The notes below the pieces were generated by a model that did no database searches, had not been told where the DNA came from, and worked only from the letters and a program-made list of their open reading frames with translations. The position numbers and the translations under genes were made by a program. From an uncultured Candidatus Saccharibacteria bacterium (GTDB lineage: Bacteria > Patescibacteriota > Minisyncoccia > Minisyncoccales > Staskawiczbacteraceae), in the NCBI GenBank assembly GCA_964453095.1, contig CAYVRE010000002.1, positions 1-32,201 on the forward strand: a stretch of DNA of 32,201 nt, given 5' to 3'. Every line of letters begins with the position of its first letter. Position 1 is the stretch's first letter. Below are positions 128-27,523 of the stretch, in pieces.

Positions 128-421
128 TTATTTTTGTCCTTTGAGTTCGGCTAAGCGGGCTTTAATGGCTTTAAGCTCATCCTCTAAATCTTTCGCGTCT
201 TCGGAAAGTATCTCTGTTTCCTCCTTTTTAGAAGGAGCAGAAACAGGATAGTAGGGATTGTAACCCCCTGATCTTCCCAAACCAAATCCTCTTCCATATC
301 CACGACCTAAACCACGGCCACCACCTCTGCGACCATAAGCCATTCCTCCACCGCAAGGACCTAAACCCCAGCCAGTGCCGGCGCCCGAACCTCTAGGACC
401 AGTTCCGTCTAATTTTGGCAT
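128..421 (-). CDS. Small Gly/Arg-rich protein with C-terminal coiled coil, DUF5320-like
   Basis: 97-aa ORF. The N-terminal half is low-complexity (GTGPRGSGAGTGWGLGPCGGG...GRGYGRGFGLGR). The C-terminal part is a charged helix (EDELKAIKARLAELKGQK). Family recalled from memory, not searched. Confidence 0.7.
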   Translation of the reverse strand: MPKLDGTGPRGSGAGTGWGLGPCGGGMAYGRRGGGRGLGRGYGRGFGLGRSGGYNPYYPVSAPSKKEETEILSEDAKDLEDELKAIKARLAELKGQK

Positions 422-1740: not shown

Positions 1741-1932
1741 TTAAAAAACTAACCTCTTAATTATCTCAGAAAAAAGAAAATCGAGGGCGCCTAAAAATGC
1801 AGCTACTGCAATAGTGATTCCAAGCACAACCATAGTGTGCCTAAAAACTTCCTTGCGCGTCAGCCAGCTTACTCTTTTCATTTCCACCCAGACCTCTCTG
1901 AAAAATGTTTTAATTTTTTGAATTATCTCCAT
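1741..1932 (-). CDS. secE: Preprotein translocase subunit SecE
   Basis: 63 aa with a single C-terminal TM helix (VVLGITIAVAAFLGALDFLF). Ends 1 nt before the nusG start, the canonical position. Confidence 0.85.
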   Translation of the reverse strand: MEIIQKIKTFFREVWVEMKRVSWLTRKEVFRHTMVVLGITIAVAAFLGALDFLFSEIIKRLVF

Positions 1933-2028
1933 ATATTTTTAAAATATTTTATACTTCTTGTTCTAAAAAACGGCCTCGGCGGCCATCTATTTACATAATA
2001 TCCGACTCAAAGGCATAAGTCAAGGGTT

Positions 2029-2058
2029 ATAAAAAATCCTGCGGTGTTCAGTCGCAGG
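2029..2058 (-). terminator. Rho-independent terminator of the kinase-like/IMPase-like operon
   Basis: Minus strand reads CCTGCG-ACTGAACAC-CGCAGG followed by ATTTTTTAT. A second weak GGCC/GGCC hairpin plus T6 lies at 1965-1984. Confidence 0.7.
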
Positions 2059-2090
2059 AAATCACCCGACAAAACAGCTGGTTCAGCCGG

Positions 2091-3260
2091 CTAGTCGAGG
2101 ATTATTTCGCGGTAGCAATGCTGTTGCATCAGGGAGTTCACCCATTCATTGTTCAGTGGCGCCACAATCAGCGTCGACCGATATCTGCTGGGGTTCGGGA
2201 ACCTCCGTAAAAAATTAACATCCAGCGCTGTCCCCCTATCATCAAAATCCTGGAATACGCTATAGATAGGAGAAGTTGCCATCAAGATGCCCTCCTTTGT
2301 CCGTGGAGTCTCCTGAGAAATTTCAAAAATCCTCAGGATTTTTTCCTGCCCGCGCCGGGCAAATATTACAAAGGGTATCCAGTGAATCCACTCTGTGATT
2401 TTCTCTCCATTTGCCAGAATAAATCCCATAGGCTCGGATGCTGATTGCAACGACGAGAGATATAGGATTCTTGCAGGCCCGCCGGGCTGATCATAACGTC
2501 CAAAACGCTTACGCTCATCAGGCGAGAGAATATCAATATCGTCCATATTTTCTGCATAGCCGGTTTTTGTCTCGCTTCCTAAAAAAGCGGTGAAATATTT
2601 GGATTTATCCCATGGCCTGCCCGACGGAATAGGGTTAAACCCAATAACTCTGCCTTTTTTAAGAACATCTGCCAGTGTAAGCCGGCAGCATCTCGACGAG
2701 CCGTCACACTTCAATTCCATAATGAAGATGCCGGAAGAACAGGCGACAACAAGCTCCTGAGTGATATAGTTGAGCAGGACAGAAAAGACTATCATACCCC
2801 TCCTCACGCAGGTTATAGCTCCTGTGGACCCGGTGATTGATACCGGCCCGCCGGCGATTCTTTTCCATCGCCTCAGGGATTTTTCCTGGGTTATCACATT
2901 GCCAAATTTTTCTAAGCCGTGCTCAGCTTGCGCGCGCTTGAGAAATTTCACCAAGTGGCTGGATCTGTCTACGGGATCGCAGAAAAATACAGACGGGTGA
3001 AATTTGATGTCGGCAAAGGCTGGCCATCTTTTCAAAAAACTAGACCCCAACTCTTCGGTGACAAGCACAGAATCAGGGTCATACCTCTTTAGACAGCCGT
3101 CTATTTGTATCTCTGTGTCCGCATCAAAAGCATATGTGTCTGACTTGCCATAAGAAACTCTTTTCAGCAAATCAGAAACACGCGTTTGGGTCAAACTCTT
3201 GTTTGCCAGAAGTAGCGCCTCAATACAGGCGGTGCAATAGTCGTCGTTTTTACCTGACAT
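2091..3260 (-). CDS. Divergent inositol-monophosphatase/FBPase/CysQ (FIG)-fold-like protein, function unknown
   Basis: The ORF track starts at GTG 3266. ATG 3260 is preferred because AAGGAGG lies 7 nt upstream. KSDTYAFDADTEIQIDGCLKRYDPDSVLVTEELG matches IMPase motif A (K..D.VT..D...E......P...i..EE.G). FFCDPVDRSS matches W.iDPiDGT with DGT changed to DRS. I see no clear WD.AAG third motif, and the C-terminal ~200 aa are unassigned. Confidence 0.8.
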   Translation of the reverse strand: MSGKNDDYCTACIEALLLANKSLTQTRVSDLLKRVSYGKSDTYAFDADTEIQIDGCLKRYDPDSVLVTEELGSSFLKRWPAFADIKFHPSVFFCDPVDRSSHLVKFLKRAQAEHGLEKFGNVITQEKSLRRWKRIAGGPVSITGSTGAITCVRRGMIVFSVLLNYITQELVVACSSGIFIMELKCDGSSRCCRLTLADVLKKGRVIGFNPIPSGRPWDKSKYFTAFLGSETKTGYAENMDDIDILSPDERKRFGRYDQPGGPARILYLSSLQSASEPMGFILANGEKITEWIHWIPFVIFARRGQEKILRIFEISQETPRTKEGILMATSPIYSVFQDFDDRGTALDVNFLRRFPNPSRYRSTLIVAPLNNEWVNSLMQQHCYREIILD

Positions 3261-3262
3261 AG

Positions 3263-3952
3263 TCACACCTCCTTACTTTTTTGCTGGCCGTTGATGGAAA
3301 AAGAAACAAGCTCGGTCAATGCCTTGCCCACCTTTTGTATCACTACTGTTTTAGATGAGCTGGCATCAATCATTATCTTCGGGACGCTGAGGCGCTCGTA
3401 AATTGCAATAAGCGCCGGCCTGAGTTTTTTCAAATACTCGTAGTACTGGCCAATTATCTTGGTGCGCTCTGACTCTGCAAAACACACAAGGCGCTGTTGG
3501 TAGCGGTGCTGCCTCCGTTCCCAGGAAAGTTGCAGCGGAACATCCAAAAAGATTATTCCGGCCTGCAATTTCTCAAGCCTTGCAATATATTCCAGCCAAT
3601 ACTCTTCAGCCAAATCAAGGCCGTGGGCTTTTGCGTGGGCTATCGTAAAGATATTGCACTCATCCAAATACACCAAATTGTCGTGTTTTTGTCCGAGTAT
3701 CAAATCCATACGATCGAGATCCCATTTTATAACTTCGAGTTCCTGTTCCAGTGTCATAAAGATCCCGCCCAGCACAACCTCTTTGTGCACCATAAGCTGC
3801 CTGCTTTCCTGTAAAGCGAATAAAAACGGCAAACTCTGCTGGCCGAGCGCAGCAATCACCGGAGACAAGTTTTCATAATGCTCGTTAAGAGCTGATATAA
3901 CGGTTGTCTTTCCTGCTGCTTGCGGGCCGGCGATTATGATAAACCTTTTCAT
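3263..3952 (-). CDS. P-loop nucleoside/nucleotide-kinase-like protein (dNK / AAA_28-like layout)
   Basis: The ORF track starts at GTG 4000. ATG 3952 is preferred because GGAGG (3963..3959) lies 6 nt upstream and puts Walker A (GPQAAGKT) at residues 8-15, as in small kinases. Other motifs: VYLDE (Walker B-like), ESRQ, and an Arg-rich lid-like WERRQHRYQQR. Its stop TGA (3265..3263) is 2 nt from the downstream ATG. Confidence 0.8.
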   Translation of the reverse strand: MKRFIIIAGPQAAGKTTVISALNEHYENLSPVIAALGQQSLPFLFALQESRQLMVHKEVVLGGIFMTLEQELEVIKWDLDRMDLILGQKHDNLVYLDECNIFTIAHAKAHGLDLAEEYWLEYIARLEKLQAGIIFLDVPLQLSWERRQHRYQQRLVCFAESERTKIIGQYYEYLKKLRPALIAIYERLSVPKIMIDASSSKTVVIQKVGKALTELVSFSINGQQKSKEV

Positions 3953-4045
3953 GCTAATCCTCCATAATTGAAACCGCGGATAGGTCTTGTCAACGAGCAC
4001 GCTATTTTTATCTAATCACTTTAAAAACCTTTGTCAACTCTATTA

Positions 4046-4085
4046 CAACAAAAAAGCCCTGCGTTACCCGAAGGTAAGGCAGGGC
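4046..4085 (-). terminator. Strong rho-independent terminator after the small acidic ORF
   Basis: Minus strand reads GCCCTGC-C-TTACC-TTCG-GGTAA-C-GCAGGGC followed by TTTTTTGTTGT, a long GC-rich hairpin with a UUCG loop. Confidence 0.85.
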
Positions 4086-4187
4086 CTGGTTCCCCTTGTC
4101 AGAACCTCGTTGAGAGATTCAACATCCGCCGGAGGGAAAGCTCGTCATCGTAGCTCGACGGCAAAAGATGCGGGCAGCTGACAGGCG

Positions 4188-4361
4188 TTAGCCCTGAAGA
4201 TCTGCATCCAAGCACAGATCTTCAAAATACTCTGTCATCTCATCTACGGTCATCCCGCGACGGGCAGCTTCAGCCGCTTCATCGTGAGCTGCCCTGGCGA
4301 TGTCATCCAAAAGGATGGCTTCCTGCTCTGCGTCTTGTACTGCTACCAGTGTCAACGACAT
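4188..4361 (-). CDS. 57-aa highly acidic hypothetical protein
   Basis: MSLTLVAVQDAEQEAILLDDIARAAHDEAAEAARRGMTVDEMTEYFEDLCLDADLQG. AAAGGAG lies 7 nt upstream of ATG 4361 (the track ORF begins further upstream at 4397). It has its own promoter and terminator. Confidence 0.6.
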   Translation of the reverse strand: MSLTLVAVQDAEQEAILLDDIARAAHDEAAEAARRGMTVDEMTEYFEDLCLDADLQG

Positions 4362-4410
4362 TCCAGACTCCTTTCTAGGGGGGACTTGAAAGAACATTCT
4401 ACGTAACTAT

Positions 4411-4439
4411 ACTATAGCATACAGGATATTTCCTGTCAA
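4411..4439 (-). promoter_or_regulatory. Near-consensus sigma70 promoter with an overlapping palindrome
   Basis: Minus strand reads TTGACA (4439..4434), a 17-nt spacer, then TATAGT (4416..4411). The perfect inverted repeat ACAGGA-TATT-TCCTGT (4421-4436) overlaps the -35 box and spacer, like an operator. Confidence 0.6.
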
Positions 4440-4442
4440 GGT

Positions 4443-6554
4443 TTATATATCCAGATTCTTGGCTGCTTTGGCATGGGTTTGGATAAACTTCTTGCGGGGC
4501 TCCACTTCCTCTCCCATCAGGGTATCAAGGGTTTTATCCGCTTCGTGGGCTACCTCGACTGAAACCTGCAATAATGTTCTGTTTTCTGGATTCATTGTTG
4601 TTTCCCAAAGCTGCTCCGGGTTCATTTCTCCCAAACCTTTGTAGCGCTGTATGGAAGCCGACTTGCCTGTTTCTTTTATAATCTTATCTTTTTGATCGTC
4701 TGAATAGGCATACTGGGCTGTTTTTCCCGATTGTATCTTATACAAAGGCGGCTGGGCGATATATATATGGCCGGCATCGACAACGGGCTTGAAGTGCCTG
4801 TAAAAGAAAGTCAGCAATAGCGTCCTTATATGCGCCCCGTCAACATCAGCATCAGTCATAATTATAATACGATGATATCTTAACTTTTCTATATCAAAAT
4901 CCTCTCCTATTCCGGTGCCCATAGCAATAATCAAAGCTTTGATTTCTTTTGAAGCCAGCATTTTATCTAAACGGGCTCTTTCCACATTTAAAATCTTTCC
5001 GCGCAAAGGCAATATCGCCTGGAATCTTCTGTCGCGCGCCATTTTTGATGAGCCTCCGGCTGAATCTCCTTCGACGATATATATTTCTGATTCTTCCGGC
5101 TTGCGAGACAAGCAATCCGCTAGTTTCCCCGGCAATGCCAAACCTTCCAGAGCGCCTTTTCTCAACACTGTTTGCCTTGCAGCTTTGGCTGCCAATCTTG
5201 CTTTGGTTGCCAAGAGACAATTTTCAATAACAGACCTGGCGTCTGACGGATTTCTTTCTAAATAATCAGACAAACCCTCGGCTACAGCGGTTTCCACCGC
5301 GTTCTTGGCCTCAGGGTTGCCGAGCTTGGCTTTTGTCTGGCCCTCAAACTGCGGAGTCCGTATTTTAACTGAAACAACGGCAGTCAAACCCTCTCTGACA
5401 TCGTCTCCTGAAAAGTTTTCATCTTTTTCTTTCAAAAAACCTTCCCGTCTTGCGTAATCATTTAAAGACCTGGTCAGCGCAGTGCGGAATCCGGAAATGT
5501 GCGTGCCTCCCTCAACTGTATAAATATTATTGGCAAATGACTCTTCGGTGCATTCCATTTCCTGAGTGTATTGGAAAGCCGCTTCAACAAAAATGTCTTC
5601 CTTGGTAGCGGCAACTGAAAAGATATTCGGATGGCGGGGCGTATTGCTTTGCACCAGATATTTTACATAAGACGCAACGCCTCCCTCAAAATAGAAGCTA
5701 TAACTGGCTTCCTGCCCTTTTATCCTCTCGTCGCTAAAAACAATTCTTACTCCTTTTGTCAGATAAGCCTGCTGTCGCAGATGATTCAAAATTCTTTTCG
5801 GATCGTATTTTATTTCAGAAAAAATCAAAGGGTCGGCATCAAAGGTCTGCGTGGTTCCGGTTTTTTTTGAATCCCCAACTTTTTTAACTGCTGATTTGGG
5901 ATTGCCCCTGAAATATTCCTGCTGATAAACTCCTCCGTCTCTGTGCACCTCGGACAGCATATACGTTGAAAGCGCGCAAACTACGGAAATACCGACTCCG
6001 TGTAAACCGCCGGAAACTTTGTAAGCATCTCCGCCGAACTTTCCTCCGGCATGCAAGGTAGTCATAACTGTTTCCAATGCCGACTTCTTGGTATCAGCGT
6101 GCTTTTCTACGGGAATACCCCTGCCGTCATCAGATATTCTCACCCTGTTGCTGGGCATCAGAACAACCTCAATGGTTTTGGCATAGCCGGCCATTGCTTC
6201 ATCTAAACAATTATCGACAACTTCCCATATCAAATGGTGCAAACCGTCGATTCCGGTGGAACCGATATACATTCCCGGCCTCTTTCTTACAGGCTCCAAG
6301 CCCTTCAGCACATAAATGTCCTTGGCAGTATACTCTCCTTCTTTCCTCACCTTCTTCGCCTCAATTTTCGGCTCCTCTTTCACAACCTCTGTTTTTCTCG
6401 GCTCCGGCTTTACTTCCTCCTTTATTTTTTCCTCAATTTTAACCGGTTTTTCCTTCTTCACCGGCTTCGGCACTACAGCCTTCTTCACCGCTGGTTTTAC
6501 CACGGCCTTTTTCTCTAATTTTTCATCTGCGTCCTTGATATTCAATTTGATCAT
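4443..6554 (-). CDS. gyrB: DNA gyrase subunit B
   Basis: GHKL motifs (HHLIWEVVDNCLDEAMAG, DDGRGIPV, GGLHGVG), Toprim motifs (EIYIVEGDSAGGS, MTDADVDGAHI) and C-terminal YKGLGEMNPEQLWETTM. The first 68 codons are a K/E/P/V-rich extension. An alternative GTG start at 6350 with GAGG 8 nt upstream would give a normal-length N-terminus. Confidence 0.95.
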   Translation of the reverse strand: MIKLNIKDADEKLEKKAVVKPAVKKAVVPKPVKKEKPVKIEEKIKEEVKPEPRKTEVVKEEPKIEAKKVRKEGEYTAKDIYVLKGLEPVRKRPGMYIGSTGIDGLHHLIWEVVDNCLDEAMAGYAKTIEVVLMPSNRVRISDDGRGIPVEKHADTKKSALETVMTTLHAGGKFGGDAYKVSGGLHGVGISVVCALSTYMLSEVHRDGGVYQQEYFRGNPKSAVKKVGDSKKTGTTQTFDADPLIFSEIKYDPKRILNHLRQQAYLTKGVRIVFSDERIKGQEASYSFYFEGGVASYVKYLVQSNTPRHPNIFSVAATKEDIFVEAAFQYTQEMECTEESFANNIYTVEGGTHISGFRTALTRSLNDYARREGFLKEKDENFSGDDVREGLTAVVSVKIRTPQFEGQTKAKLGNPEAKNAVETAVAEGLSDYLERNPSDARSVIENCLLATKARLAAKAARQTVLRKGALEGLALPGKLADCLSRKPEESEIYIVEGDSAGGSSKMARDRRFQAILPLRGKILNVERARLDKMLASKEIKALIIAMGTGIGEDFDIEKLRYHRIIIMTDADVDGAHIRTLLLTFFYRHFKPVVDAGHIYIAQPPLYKIQSGKTAQYAYSDDQKDKIIKETGKSASIQRYKGLGEMNPEQLWETTMNPENRTLLQVSVEVAHEADKTLDTLMGEEVEPRKKFIQTHAKAAKNLDI

Positions 6555-7874: not shown

Positions 7875-8216
7875 ATGGCAAAAAAACGCGAACGAGTGAC
7901 TACCTACTATATCGAACCCAGGGGCGATATTGCCTATACAAACAGGGTTTTGGCAAGCAACATCGATGAAGAAGACGCCCTACAAAGCGTGCTCTGCAAG
8001 GACGGCGTAAAGCGCGACTTGTGGAGGTGCTCGTCAGGCAAGGCTGTTGCGATGTGGAGCAGCAGGCACAACTGGGAGGAACTGGGCTTCAAAATTAGAA
8101 TCTGGCAGCAGGAAGGCAACGGAGAAATACGCATTGCAAGCGGCAAAAATAAAAACCCCCGCTTCCCTTACGGCCGTCCGAGAAAGAAAGTGAGTAAAGC
8201 TTATGGCAAGTTCTAA
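7875..8216 (+). CDS. Hypothetical basic protein (113 aa)
   Basis: ORF with GAGGG 4 nt upstream of the ATG. No motif recognised. Basic C-terminal tail (NPRFPYGRPRKKVSKAYGKF). Confidence 0.6.
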   Translation: MAKKRERVTTYYIEPRGDIAYTNRVLASNIDEEDALQSVLCKDGVKRDLWRCSSGKAVAMWSSRHNWEELGFKIRIWQQEGNGEIRIASGKNKNPRFPYGRPRKKVSKAYGKF

Positions 8217-20209: not shown

Positions 20210-20283
20210 CGCGGGCGACGGGATTTGAACCCGTGGTCTCTCCCGTGACAGGGGAGCATTTTACCAGACTAAACTACGCCCGC
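20210..20283 (-). tRNA. tRNA-Asp (anticodon GTC)
   Basis: Hand-folded cloverleaf: acceptor GCGGGCG/CGCCCGC, D-arm GTTT-AGTCTGGTA-AAAT, anticodon arm CTCCC-CTGTCAC-GGGAG, T-arm ACGGG-TTCAAAT-CCCGT, discriminator G. No encoded CCA. Confidence 0.9.
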
Positions 20284-20946
20284 ATTTTTATACGTTTTAT
20301 ATTTTCTTTCTAAATAAATCAAATTTTCAACTTTATCCCCATTATACATAAATTTGAAAAGTTTTCTAGAGTCATTAATACTATAATTTAATCTCCACGT
20401 ATTGTCTCTACAATACGATGATCCTGTTGTGCCCAATAATCTACTTAGACTATTTTTTAAATTATTTAAAATTAATCCGCTTCCGGATGTAAATCTTGTA
20501 GATAAAACGCATGCTTTACTTTTTCTATCACACCTATCAAAATACCCCGATACTACATTTCCGTCTCCGTCAAAATATCCTCTTACAAAATGGTGAAAAT
20601 ATTTATCTGGGACATGGGGCAAATCTATTGTTTTACTTTTGTTGGGCGTTAAACCCAACTTCAATAAATCATCAAATATTTTTTTGCTTCCAATCTGTAA
20701 GCGATACGCATCTTTCCATTTTTTATTTAAGACGTTCCTTCGCTTAATGCTAATCTTATGATTCGAGCCAAAAGCTTCTTTAATCTCTTCTAATAAATCT
20801 TTATCTGTAATTTCAATAGCTATAAAATGCGCTCCCCTCTTATTTCTTATCATGTTTCCATCGGCTGTAAAAAATCCCAAGACATAGGCCATTTCTGGTG
20901 TCCAACTTTTAAAGAAATCTTCATTCTTTATTTTAAAAATCGGCAT
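20269..20946 (-). CDS. LAGLIDADG homing endonuclease (double-motif, monomeric type)
   Basis: 225 aa with two LAGLIDADG motifs (YVLGFFTADGN and FVRGYFDGDGN). The ATG at 20946 is 1 nt after the tRNA-Met discriminator. The stop TAG (20271..20269) is nt 13-15 of tRNA-Asp. Confidence 0.9.
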   Translation of the reverse strand: MPIFKIKNEDFFKSWTPEMAYVLGFFTADGNMIRNKRGAHFIAIEITDKDLLEEIKEAFGSNHKISIKRRNVLNKKWKDAYRLQIGSKKIFDDLLKLGLTPNKSKTIDLPHVPDKYFHHFVRGYFDGDGNVVSGYFDRCDRKSKACVLSTRFTSGSGLILNNLKNSLSRLLGTTGSSYCRDNTWRLNYSINDSRKLFKFMYNGDKVENLIYLERKYKTYKNAGVV

Positions 20947-20947
20947 G

Positions 20948-21021
20948 TGCCGAGGGTGGGAGTCGGACCCACGACCTCTGCGTTATGAGTGCAGCGCTCT
21001 TACCAACTGAGCTACCCCGGC
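20948..21021 (-). tRNA. tRNA with CAT anticodon, elongator type (Met or Ile2)
   Basis: Acceptor GCCGGGG/CCTCGGC (G1:C72), D-arm GCTC-AGTTGGTAA-GAGC (C11:G24), anticodon arm CTGCA-CTCATAA-CGCAG (A31xC39), T-arm GTGGG-TCCGACT-CCCAC, discriminator A. The T-loop has C where U55 is expected. No CCA. Confidence 0.8.
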
Positions 21022-27173: not shown

Positions 27174-27518
27174 CTCAGCAAGATGAGTGATCGCTCTAAA
27201 CGCAAGTTTGGGGAGGAAAGTCCGAACACCCTCCGTGAAAACGGATAAAAAGATAGCGGCTAACAGCCGTCCACCGCAAGGTGCGAGGTGCGAACAGAAA
27301 CGGCCAAGATCGAAAGGTCTGGCATCCCCCCGTGGGATAGTTTTACAGCAATGTAAAAATGAAACGGCTAAATCCTTATCGGGCGCAAGAACAAAGCAGA
27401 TGATTGGGTTAATTTTATCTCAAGATTCTGTTAAAAGTAGTTCGCTTGATTCCGACAGTAATGTCGAGAACAGACAGATGATCGCATAAAACAAAATTCG
27501 GCTTACGGTCTTGCTGAG
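27174..27518 (+). ncRNA. rnpB: RNase P RNA, bacterial type A
   Basis: P1 stem CTCAGCAAGA (27174-83) / TCTTGCTGAG (27509-18). CR-I is GGGAGGAAAGTCCGAACAC. Also ACAGAAAC, and CR-V AACAAAATTCGGCTTAC. Followed by a strong terminator. Confidence 0.93.
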
Positions 27519-27523
27519 ACAAC

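Follow-up and report, generated by a model that had tools for sequence, protein, structure and literature searches.

Which proteins are encoded by the two adjacent genes that lie between secE and gyrB in an uncultured Candidatus Saccharibacteria bacterium, and do they act together? The genes were found in a 32,201-nucleotide (nt) stretch of contig CAYVRE010000002.1, which we call the window and whose numbering is used throughout. Gene 1 and gene 2 are both on the minus strand, as are secE and gyrB (Table 1), and 2 nt separate the stop codon of gene 1 from the start codon of gene 2. The two genes are translationally coupled. A first-pass annotation, made from the letters alone, had described this tight coupling, the sizes of both genes and the AAGGAGG inside gene 1, all of which we confirmed from the sequence. 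We recovered 80 homologues of gene 1 and 284 of gene 2, the latter from a set of 5.8 billion proteins, nearly all in Patescibacteria metagenome-assembled genomes and either unnamed or labelled 'hypothetical protein'. With so many conserved homologues, both open reading frames (ORFs) are genuine genes rather than products of chance. Both proteins form new, unannotated clades of well-known superfamilies, and our literature searches returned no description of either family or of their partnership. This defines two unannotated enzyme families whose predicted folds are confident, whose active sites are conserved and whose genomic partnership is statistically clear in bacteria and archaea alike.

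Predicted folds and active sites

Gene 1 carries a Walker A motif (GPQAAGKT, residues 9-16) followed by ESRQ (49-52), LDE (96-98) and the Arg-rich WERRQHRYQQR (144-154). The first-pass annotation had listed these motifs and read them as the layout of a small kinase; all are present, with the Walker A starting at residue 9 rather than 8, and the kinase layout is borne out by structural and profile matches to deoxynucleoside kinases (dNK) and thymidylate kinases (TMK). An AlphaFold2 (AF2) model of gene 1 had a predicted local distance difference test (pLDDT) score of 91.7, and its best Foldseek matches in the Protein Data Bank (PDB) were deoxyadenosine kinase (dAK) and TMK (E 5e-6, TM-score TMt 0.6-0.74). 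The structures it resembles comprise dAK, many TMKs, Drosophila melanogaster dNK (Dm-dNK) and deoxycytidine kinase (dCK). When the family profile was compared with the PDB, Staphylococcus aureus TMK was matched over both the P-loop and lid regions (E 4.6e-5), with the Arg-rich segment W144-R154 aligned to the TMK lid.

In the alignment of the gene 1 family (A2), 27 columns are invariant. They include G9-P-Q-x-x-G14-K15, E49, R51, D97-E98-x-N100 and H106, together with S143, W144, R146, R147, Y151 and R154 in the lid. Gene 1 thus shares the Walker A P-loop, the fold and the Arg-rich lid with the dNK/TMK enzymes (Pfam dNK and Thymidylate_kin), but it has neither the DR[YHF] motif of TMK nor the ERS motif of dNK after strand 3. 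An invariant D97-E98-(C)-N100 (DECN) stands there instead, and QESRQ, AHAxAHG and SWERR are invariants of the family's own.

No family model from Pfam or NCBIfam scored above its curated cut-off on gene 1. Its Pfam matches, all under the gathering threshold, were AAA_28 (E 2.8e-5), dNK (E 5e-3) and Zeta_toxin, and the NCBIfam dTMP kinase model gave 23.5 bits against a cut-off of 83. Across 34 members of the kinase family, sub-threshold Pfam matches were to AAA_28 in 29, AAA_18 in 25, AAA_33 and Zeta_toxin in 15 each, dNK in 8 and Thymidylate_kin in 6. Matches to PADLOC-DB v2 were limited to the P-loop (residues 1-27), and none was significant. By sequence and predicted structure, gene 1 is a lid-bearing small-molecule kinase of a new, separate clade within the dNK/TMK fold.

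For gene 2, searches of Pfam, NCBIfam and PADLOC returned nothing even at E<=1, the inositol monophosphatase (IMPase) family PF00459 included. The AF2 model, built on an alignment of 32 diverse members, had a pLDDT of 90.6 and a predicted TM-score (pTM) of 0.92, and its top 50 Foldseek matches in the PDB are all members of the IMPase superfamily (IMPase, SuhB, HisN, CysQ and archaeal fructose-1,6-bisphosphatase (FBPase)/IMPase), with E down to 1e-8, TMt 0.6-0.74 and 9-14% identity. Because these alignments run to about 380 columns, they cover both domains of gene 2, and the two-domain alpha-beta-alpha-beta-alpha sugar-phosphatase fold is predicted over the full length. The first-pass annotation had assigned gene 2 to this fold and left the C-terminal ~200 residues unassigned. 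The assignment is upheld, and in the model those residues are now a second IMPase domain with insertions.

The motifs DADTE (46-50), VTEELG (67-72) and CDPVDRS (94-100) mark the putative metal site. Compared with PDB IMPases, the gene 2 family profile reached E 0.03 only; in that alignment the family's GKxDT..DAxPE, TEE and DPTDRS face KGSNDFVTNVDKAAE, TEES and DPLDGT of SuhB. A broader alignment compared with Escherichia coli SuhB by hhalign gave E 3e-6 and 88% probability over residues 29-176, the N-terminal domain only, and placed the motifs K..D..D..E, TEE (68-70) and DPxDxS (DPVDRS, 95-100) in register with their SuhB counterparts, including the acidic ligands of the EE and DPxD motifs. 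Gene 2 is about 120 residues longer than IMPases through insertions, such as residues ~108-145, which have no SuhB counterpart. It also has Arg in place of Gly/Ser in DPxD[GS][ST], and an invariant NGEKIxEW in place of WDxAAG. The replacement of DGT by DRS and the lack of WDxAAG had both been noticed in the first pass and hold; R99 deviates from the IMPase [GS], and DPxDGS occurs in some relatives. When the gene 2 family was compared by hhalign with the Inositol_P protein of locus L089 (described below), no C-terminal link was found, and sequence alignment did not place the third metal ligand.

The 32-member alignment has 52 invariant columns, among them K39, D41, D46, E50, E69-E70 and D95-P96-x-D98-R99, and the further blocks PGGPxRxLYLS (259-269) and NGEKxxEWIHW (284-294). 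Residues E69, E70, D95, P96, D98, S100 and E286 are unchanged even in distant subfamilies, and this invariance of the metal-site residues argues that gene 2 encodes a working enzyme rather than a pseudoenzyme. Sequence and model together identify it as a highly divergent member of the IMPase/FBPase/CysQ superfamily, which is extended to a clade missed by current profile libraries, including a form fused to a helix-turn-helix (HTH) domain.

The HTH-fused relatives (P0279-P0293 and P0346-P0357; loci L090 and L091) form a subfamily of ~430-480 residues with an N-terminal Xre-type HTH. They occur in bacteria outside the Candidate Phyla Radiation (CPR), such as Nitrospiraceae and others, and keep the metal-site residues. 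No kinase was present in the contexts checked, and this subfamily may be a metabolite-sensing regulator.

Linkage and distribution of the two families

Loci of the kinase family were collected from six look-ups of gene 1 homologues and a metagenome scan with the gene 1 profile, and were scored with family hidden Markov models. A gene 2 homologue was adjacent to or near the kinase in 19 of 31 non-redundant loci in which genes were visible on both sides, and the pairs were arranged in tandem, in reversed tandem, convergently or divergently. Two more of the 31, L096 and the Woesearchaeota (archaeal) locus L089, have directly upstream of the kinase a gene for an Inositol_P protein of ~320 residues that Pfam recognises and that belongs to a different clade; the one-sided contig L127 has the same arrangement. 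An IMPase-fold neighbour from either of two clades therefore accompanies the kinase in 21/31 loci (~68%), in line with the co-occurrence that the first-pass annotation had proposed as a check, when read from the kinase side. Pairwise identities of the two proteins were correlated (r 0.66; Mantel test, 0/5000), and the kinase-linked copies of gene 2 are dispersed across the gene 2 tree. The linkage is genuine but one-sided: the kinase depends on a partner of the IMPase fold, and gene 2 usually occurs without this kinase.

Other neighbours of the kinase differ from locus to locus. In one set (L087/L088/L118, 6001-9651), a cluster of three genes encodes the kinase, a 444-aa protein and a gene 2 homologue of 482 aa that weakly matches an HTH, and a single kinase locus adjoins NIF3. 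The sulfotransferase, cyclic phosphodiesterase, 444-aa, 215-aa and 113-aa neighbours were not recurrent among the loci.

The gene 2 family is small, patchy and not core in Patescibacteria, its profile having retrieved 242 proteins (E<=1e-3), many of them fragments, among 1.84 billion 50%-identity representatives. The tandem pair is also found in a 4.5-Mb chromosome labelled Bacteroidetes, with non-CPR genes around it and an IS110 transposase near. We considered a phage or plasmid origin of the pair and rejected it as unsupported, since neither family had relatives in IMG/VR (profile scans), BFVD (fold search) or PLSDB plasmids (tblastn).

Nor is the pair a core syntenic unit in close relatives, a pattern that the first-pass annotation had said would undercut its view of the locus. 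In a Doudnabacteria genome (L014) whose nusG and gyrB share 67% identity with the window's, rplK-nusG-secE-gyrB are contiguous with a secE-gyrB gap of ~625 nt, and the gene 2 homologue (42% identical) lies ~2 kb beyond rplK with no kinase. The cassette has a GC content of 0.46-0.47, compared with 0.419 +/- 0.026 for other large ORFs. Given this higher GC, the cassette's own terminators and its absence from the site in L014, we conclude that the window cassette was inserted between secE and gyrB.

Candidate functions of the pair

In proposing catalytic activities, a substrate, an order of steps and a physiological role for the pair, we infer that it may be an accessory, horizontally mobile two-enzyme module acting on a phosphorylated nucleoside-type metabolite. 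We favour this general model tentatively, and place it somewhat short of an even chance. Gene 1 would be an ATP-dependent small-molecule kinase of the dNK/TMK type and gene 2 an active phosphomonoesterase of the IMPase superfamily that depends on divalent metal, and both would work consecutively on one compound. The likeliest role would be nucleotide salvage in organisms unable to make nucleotides. The phosphatase might take off a non-5' phosphate, as from a 3'(2')-nucleotide or a nucleoside 3',5'-bisphosphate, and the kinase might provide or restore the 5' phosphate, which would turn RNA and DNA breakdown products into usable 5'-nucleotides. The phosphatase would be useful alone, with the kinase as an add-on.

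A salvage module is favoured because the hosts generally lack nucleotide synthesis: Patescibacteria and DPANN archaea are generally unable to synthesise nucleotides (PMC7304191). A nucleotide theme is also seen in the neighbourhoods of two kinases. In an archaeal contig that also carries RFC genes (L085, 159-2049), a CPDase/LigT-like 2H cyclic phosphodiesterase and a 215-aa protein, which matches nothing in Pfam or the PDB, flank the kinase, and another kinase is convergent with a dihydroorotase. A more specific 3'-to-5' route is rather unlikely as stated. It would start from 3'(2')-nucleotides or 2',3'-cyclic-nucleotide breakdown products of host RNA, which the kinase would 5'-phosphorylate before the IMPase-fold enzyme removed the 3' phosphate to yield 5'-nucleoside monophosphates. 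This route may cover the variants with the second IMPase clade in DPANN archaea, and may be a salvage route new for ultra-small symbionts. Patescibacteria and DPANN archaea live by scavenging building blocks, and a large part of their proteome lacks annotation; the pair is a concrete candidate for a missing step in their nucleotide or phosphate-ester metabolism.

Among known enzyme pairs that combine these two folds, the nearest in function is that of CysC, the adenosine 5'-phosphosulfate (APS) kinase, with CysQ, the 3'-phosphoadenosine 5'-phosphate (pAp) phosphatase: the P-loop kinase phosphorylates an adenosine nucleotide at the 3' position, and the IMPase-fold enzyme takes off a phosphate at that position. 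Gene 1, however, is no APS kinase, its sole match to CysC being confined to the P-loop (E 0.76), and sulfate-assimilation genes do not recur near the pair; a lone sulfotransferase beside one relative was not repeated. The mechanistic template for salvage would be T4 Pnkp, which joins a P-loop 5'-kinase to a 3'-phosphatase and accepts 3'-nucleoside monophosphates. It differs from the pair in that its phosphatase is HAD-type and not IMPase-fold, its two activities are fused in one protein, and the gene 1 lid is of the dNK/TMK type typical of small-molecule kinases; no ligase lies near the pair.

Several observations weigh against the two-enzyme module. The argument for a 3'-phosphate route is a chemical analogy drawn from CysC/CysQ and T4 Pnkp, and the cyclic phosphodiesterase and the dihydroorotase were each seen beside one kinase only. 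The C-terminal half of gene 2 showed no sequence similarity to IMPases, either in global hhalign against SuhB or in C-terminal-only hhalign. The Asp of WDxAAG, the third metal ligand, would be replaced by E286 by position only, the invariant N284-G-E286-K lying at a strand-helix junction in the model (strand 280-287, helix 288-300). Three distant kinases (L120, L125/L128 and L126) sit directly downstream of a radical SAM/SPASM gene of ~390-400 residues, with no IMPase-fold gene there.

The linkage seen from gene 2 tells in the same direction. A scan of one genome per species (GTDB) gave 128 relatives, and the best 80 loci, almost all from Patescibacteria, were fetched. A gene 1 relative lay within 10 kb in 7/80 of these (~9%; 6/64 of those with >=1 kb on both sides), so that the co-occurrence envisaged in the first pass is the exception when read from this side. 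In the seven loci the kinase is always the next gene, except in L043, where one small ORF intervenes, and it is placed either in tandem upstream or convergently downstream. Clustering of the neighbours of the 80 loci revealed none that recurs besides the kinase, and a Pfam census of 133 proteins flanking gene 2 homologues found scattered housekeeping families only. Even relatives ~70% identical to gene 2 occur in other contexts with no kinase. Since most gene 2 loci, including these, lack the kinase, gene 2 has a kinase-independent job.

This last point fits a reading in which gene 2 is a housekeeping sugar-phosphate phosphatase, similar to FBPase/IMPase and comparable to the archaeal bifunctional enzymes, and the kinase is unrelated or loosely related, such as a surplus thymidylate or deoxynucleoside kinase. 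IMPases and the archaeal FBPase/IMPase AF2372 are among the best structural matches, gene 2 lacks the kinase in ~90% of loci and lies there amid housekeeping genes, and some gene 1 relatives carry the Joint Genome Institute (JGI) label 'thymidylate kinase'. We nevertheless consider this unlikely, though worth keeping in view: IMPase-fold neighbours in 21 of 31 kinase loci, in four orientations and from two IMPase clades, are beyond chance for so rare a family, and a family with so few members among the 1.84 billion representatives is represented far too thinly to be a core gluconeogenic enzyme in Patescibacteria. Cofactor metabolism would instead make gene 1 a NadR-type (AAA_28-like) kinase of ribosylnicotinamide or another cofactor precursor, and gene 2 a phosphatase of NADP, nicotinamide mononucleotide, pAp or a riboflavin precursor. 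AAA_28 is the commonest sub-threshold Pfam match in the kinase family, and the IMPase fold includes NADP phosphatases and a riboflavin-pathway phosphatase (9mmi), the top Foldseek match of gene 2. A precedent counted in its favour is MJ0917, in which an NAD kinase is fused to an IMPase-like NADP phosphatase. The AAA_28 scores are under gathering, however, the structural matches favour dNK/TMK, and no NAD or flavin genes recur near the loci examined, which makes this reading quite improbable.

The asymmetric co-occurrence would also be expected of a conflict or toxin-immunity module, in which the kinase's product, a phosphorylated nucleotide, is a toxin or signal that is degraded by its partner; the phosphatase would therefore often stand alone and the kinase would rarely occur without it. 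The patchy, horizontally transferred distribution agrees with this, as do the weak Zeta_toxin matches in 15/34 kinases, the Xre HTH fusion in one subfamily and the proximity of non-Patescibacteria relatives to STAND, TIR or NACHT genes. The L087 cluster lies near a TIR-NB-ARC-TPR gene (STAND-type), and NACHT-like genes lie near two other non-CPR gene 2 copies (L051 and L090); these numbers are too small to call a defence association. The defence or toxin role that the first-pass annotation had floated finds no backing in Patescibacteria, where the neighbours are housekeeping and not defence genes, PADLOC gave no significant match, and both families are absent from IMG/VR and plasmids. Gene 2 is ~40% identical across lineages and has 52 invariant columns, unlike fast-evolving immunity proteins, and convergent or divergent layouts are ill-suited to co-regulated toxin-antitoxin pairs. 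We regard such a module as a poor prospect. The same annotation had been unable to map the pair to a named pathway or defence system, and that stands: Pfam, NCBIfam and PADLOC yielded no assignment. Least probable by far is that gene 2 is a non-catalytic, SuhB-like transcription factor of the Nus complex, located next to nusG-secE. SuhB in the rrn antitermination complex (6tqn) is among its structural matches, and gene 2 adjoins secE-nusG in the window, but the nusG-adjacent position is not conserved (the L014 homologue lies beyond rplK and other loci differ), and the invariant catalytic acidic residues speak for catalysis.

Signals at the locus and other features of the window

The pair is flanked by rplK-nusG-secE on one side and by a 69-aa acidic ORF, gyrB and pheS on the other (Table 1). 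The first-pass annotation had placed strong terminators at both ends, and both hairpins do fold well, with the z-scores given in Table 1. As predicted from its fold, the upstream hairpin with its U6 run ends the gyrB/acidic-ORF transcript ahead of the pair. The downstream hairpin lies 31 nt past the gene 2 stop codon, and 0/200 shuffles folded equally well. A consensus scan passed over both hairpins because of its loop-length rule. It also picked a different candidate promoter (TTGACA 3993 / AATTAT 3964) from the one that directly follows the upstream terminator. No riboswitch or leader was found, with 0 Rfam matches across 1900-4500.

Table 1. Features of the gene 1/gene 2 locus, in window coordinates
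Feature	Coordinates	Strand	Details
Gene 1 (K, kinase)	3952..3263	-	ATG 3952, TGA 3265-3263, 229 aa
Gene 2 (P, IMPase-fold protein)	3260..2091	-	ATG 3260, TAG 2093-2091, 389 aa
Shine-Dalgarno AAGGAGG for gene 2	3274-3268	-	Within gene 1 3' end, 7 nt 5' of ATG 3260; read from sequence
Shine-Dalgarno GGAGG for gene 1	3963-3959	-	6 nt 5' of ATG 3952; read from sequence
Intrinsic-terminator-like hairpin upstream of the pair	4050..4087	-	Stem 4087-4056, U-run (U6) 4055-4050; dG -25.1 kcal/mol, z -3.1
Intrinsic-terminator-like hairpin downstream of the pair	2030..2059	-	CCUGCG/CGCAGG stem 2059-2037, U6 2035-2030; dG -16.7 kcal/mol, z -3.9
Putative promoter	4037..4009	-	TTGACA 4037-4032, 17 nt spacer, TAGATA 4014-4009; right after upstream terminator
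secE	1741-1932	-	Neighbour
Acidic ORF, 69 aa	4188-4397	-	Neighbour
gyrB	4443-6554	-	Neighbour

The strongly acidic ORF between gyrB and the upstream terminator (57 aa if started from its second ATG) has no Pfam match. It was left out of the module because it is located upstream of the terminator. Only one relative turned up in the fetched loci, weakly similar (E 0.003) and ~170 nt upstream of the L094 kinase; L094 is a close relative whose kinase is 72% identical to gene 1. On the other side of the pair, a weaker second hairpin at 1965-1990 (minus strand; GGCCgccgaGGCC followed by U6, z -1.9) sits between a secE promoter-like site (2023-1995) and the secE start.

Elsewhere in the window, a 113-aa ORF at 7875-8216 is on the plus strand, in contrast to the other large ORFs checked, which are on the minus strand; it has no Pfam match, its GC is locally high (0.49), and AT skew and GC skew are both strongly positive. 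The stretch 128-421 (minus strand) encodes a 97-aa protein, rich in Gly and Arg and with an acidic coiled coil as its tail, that matches DUF5320 (E 3e-22). At 20210-21021 (minus strand), a 225-aa LAGLIDADG_3 homing-endonuclease-like ORF (20269-20946) lies between tRNA matches at 20210-20283, with which it shares 15 nt, and at 20948-21021, from which 1 nt separates it. A bacterial class A RNase P RNA (122 bits) is present at 27175-27521 on the plus strand, opposite to the surrounding genes.

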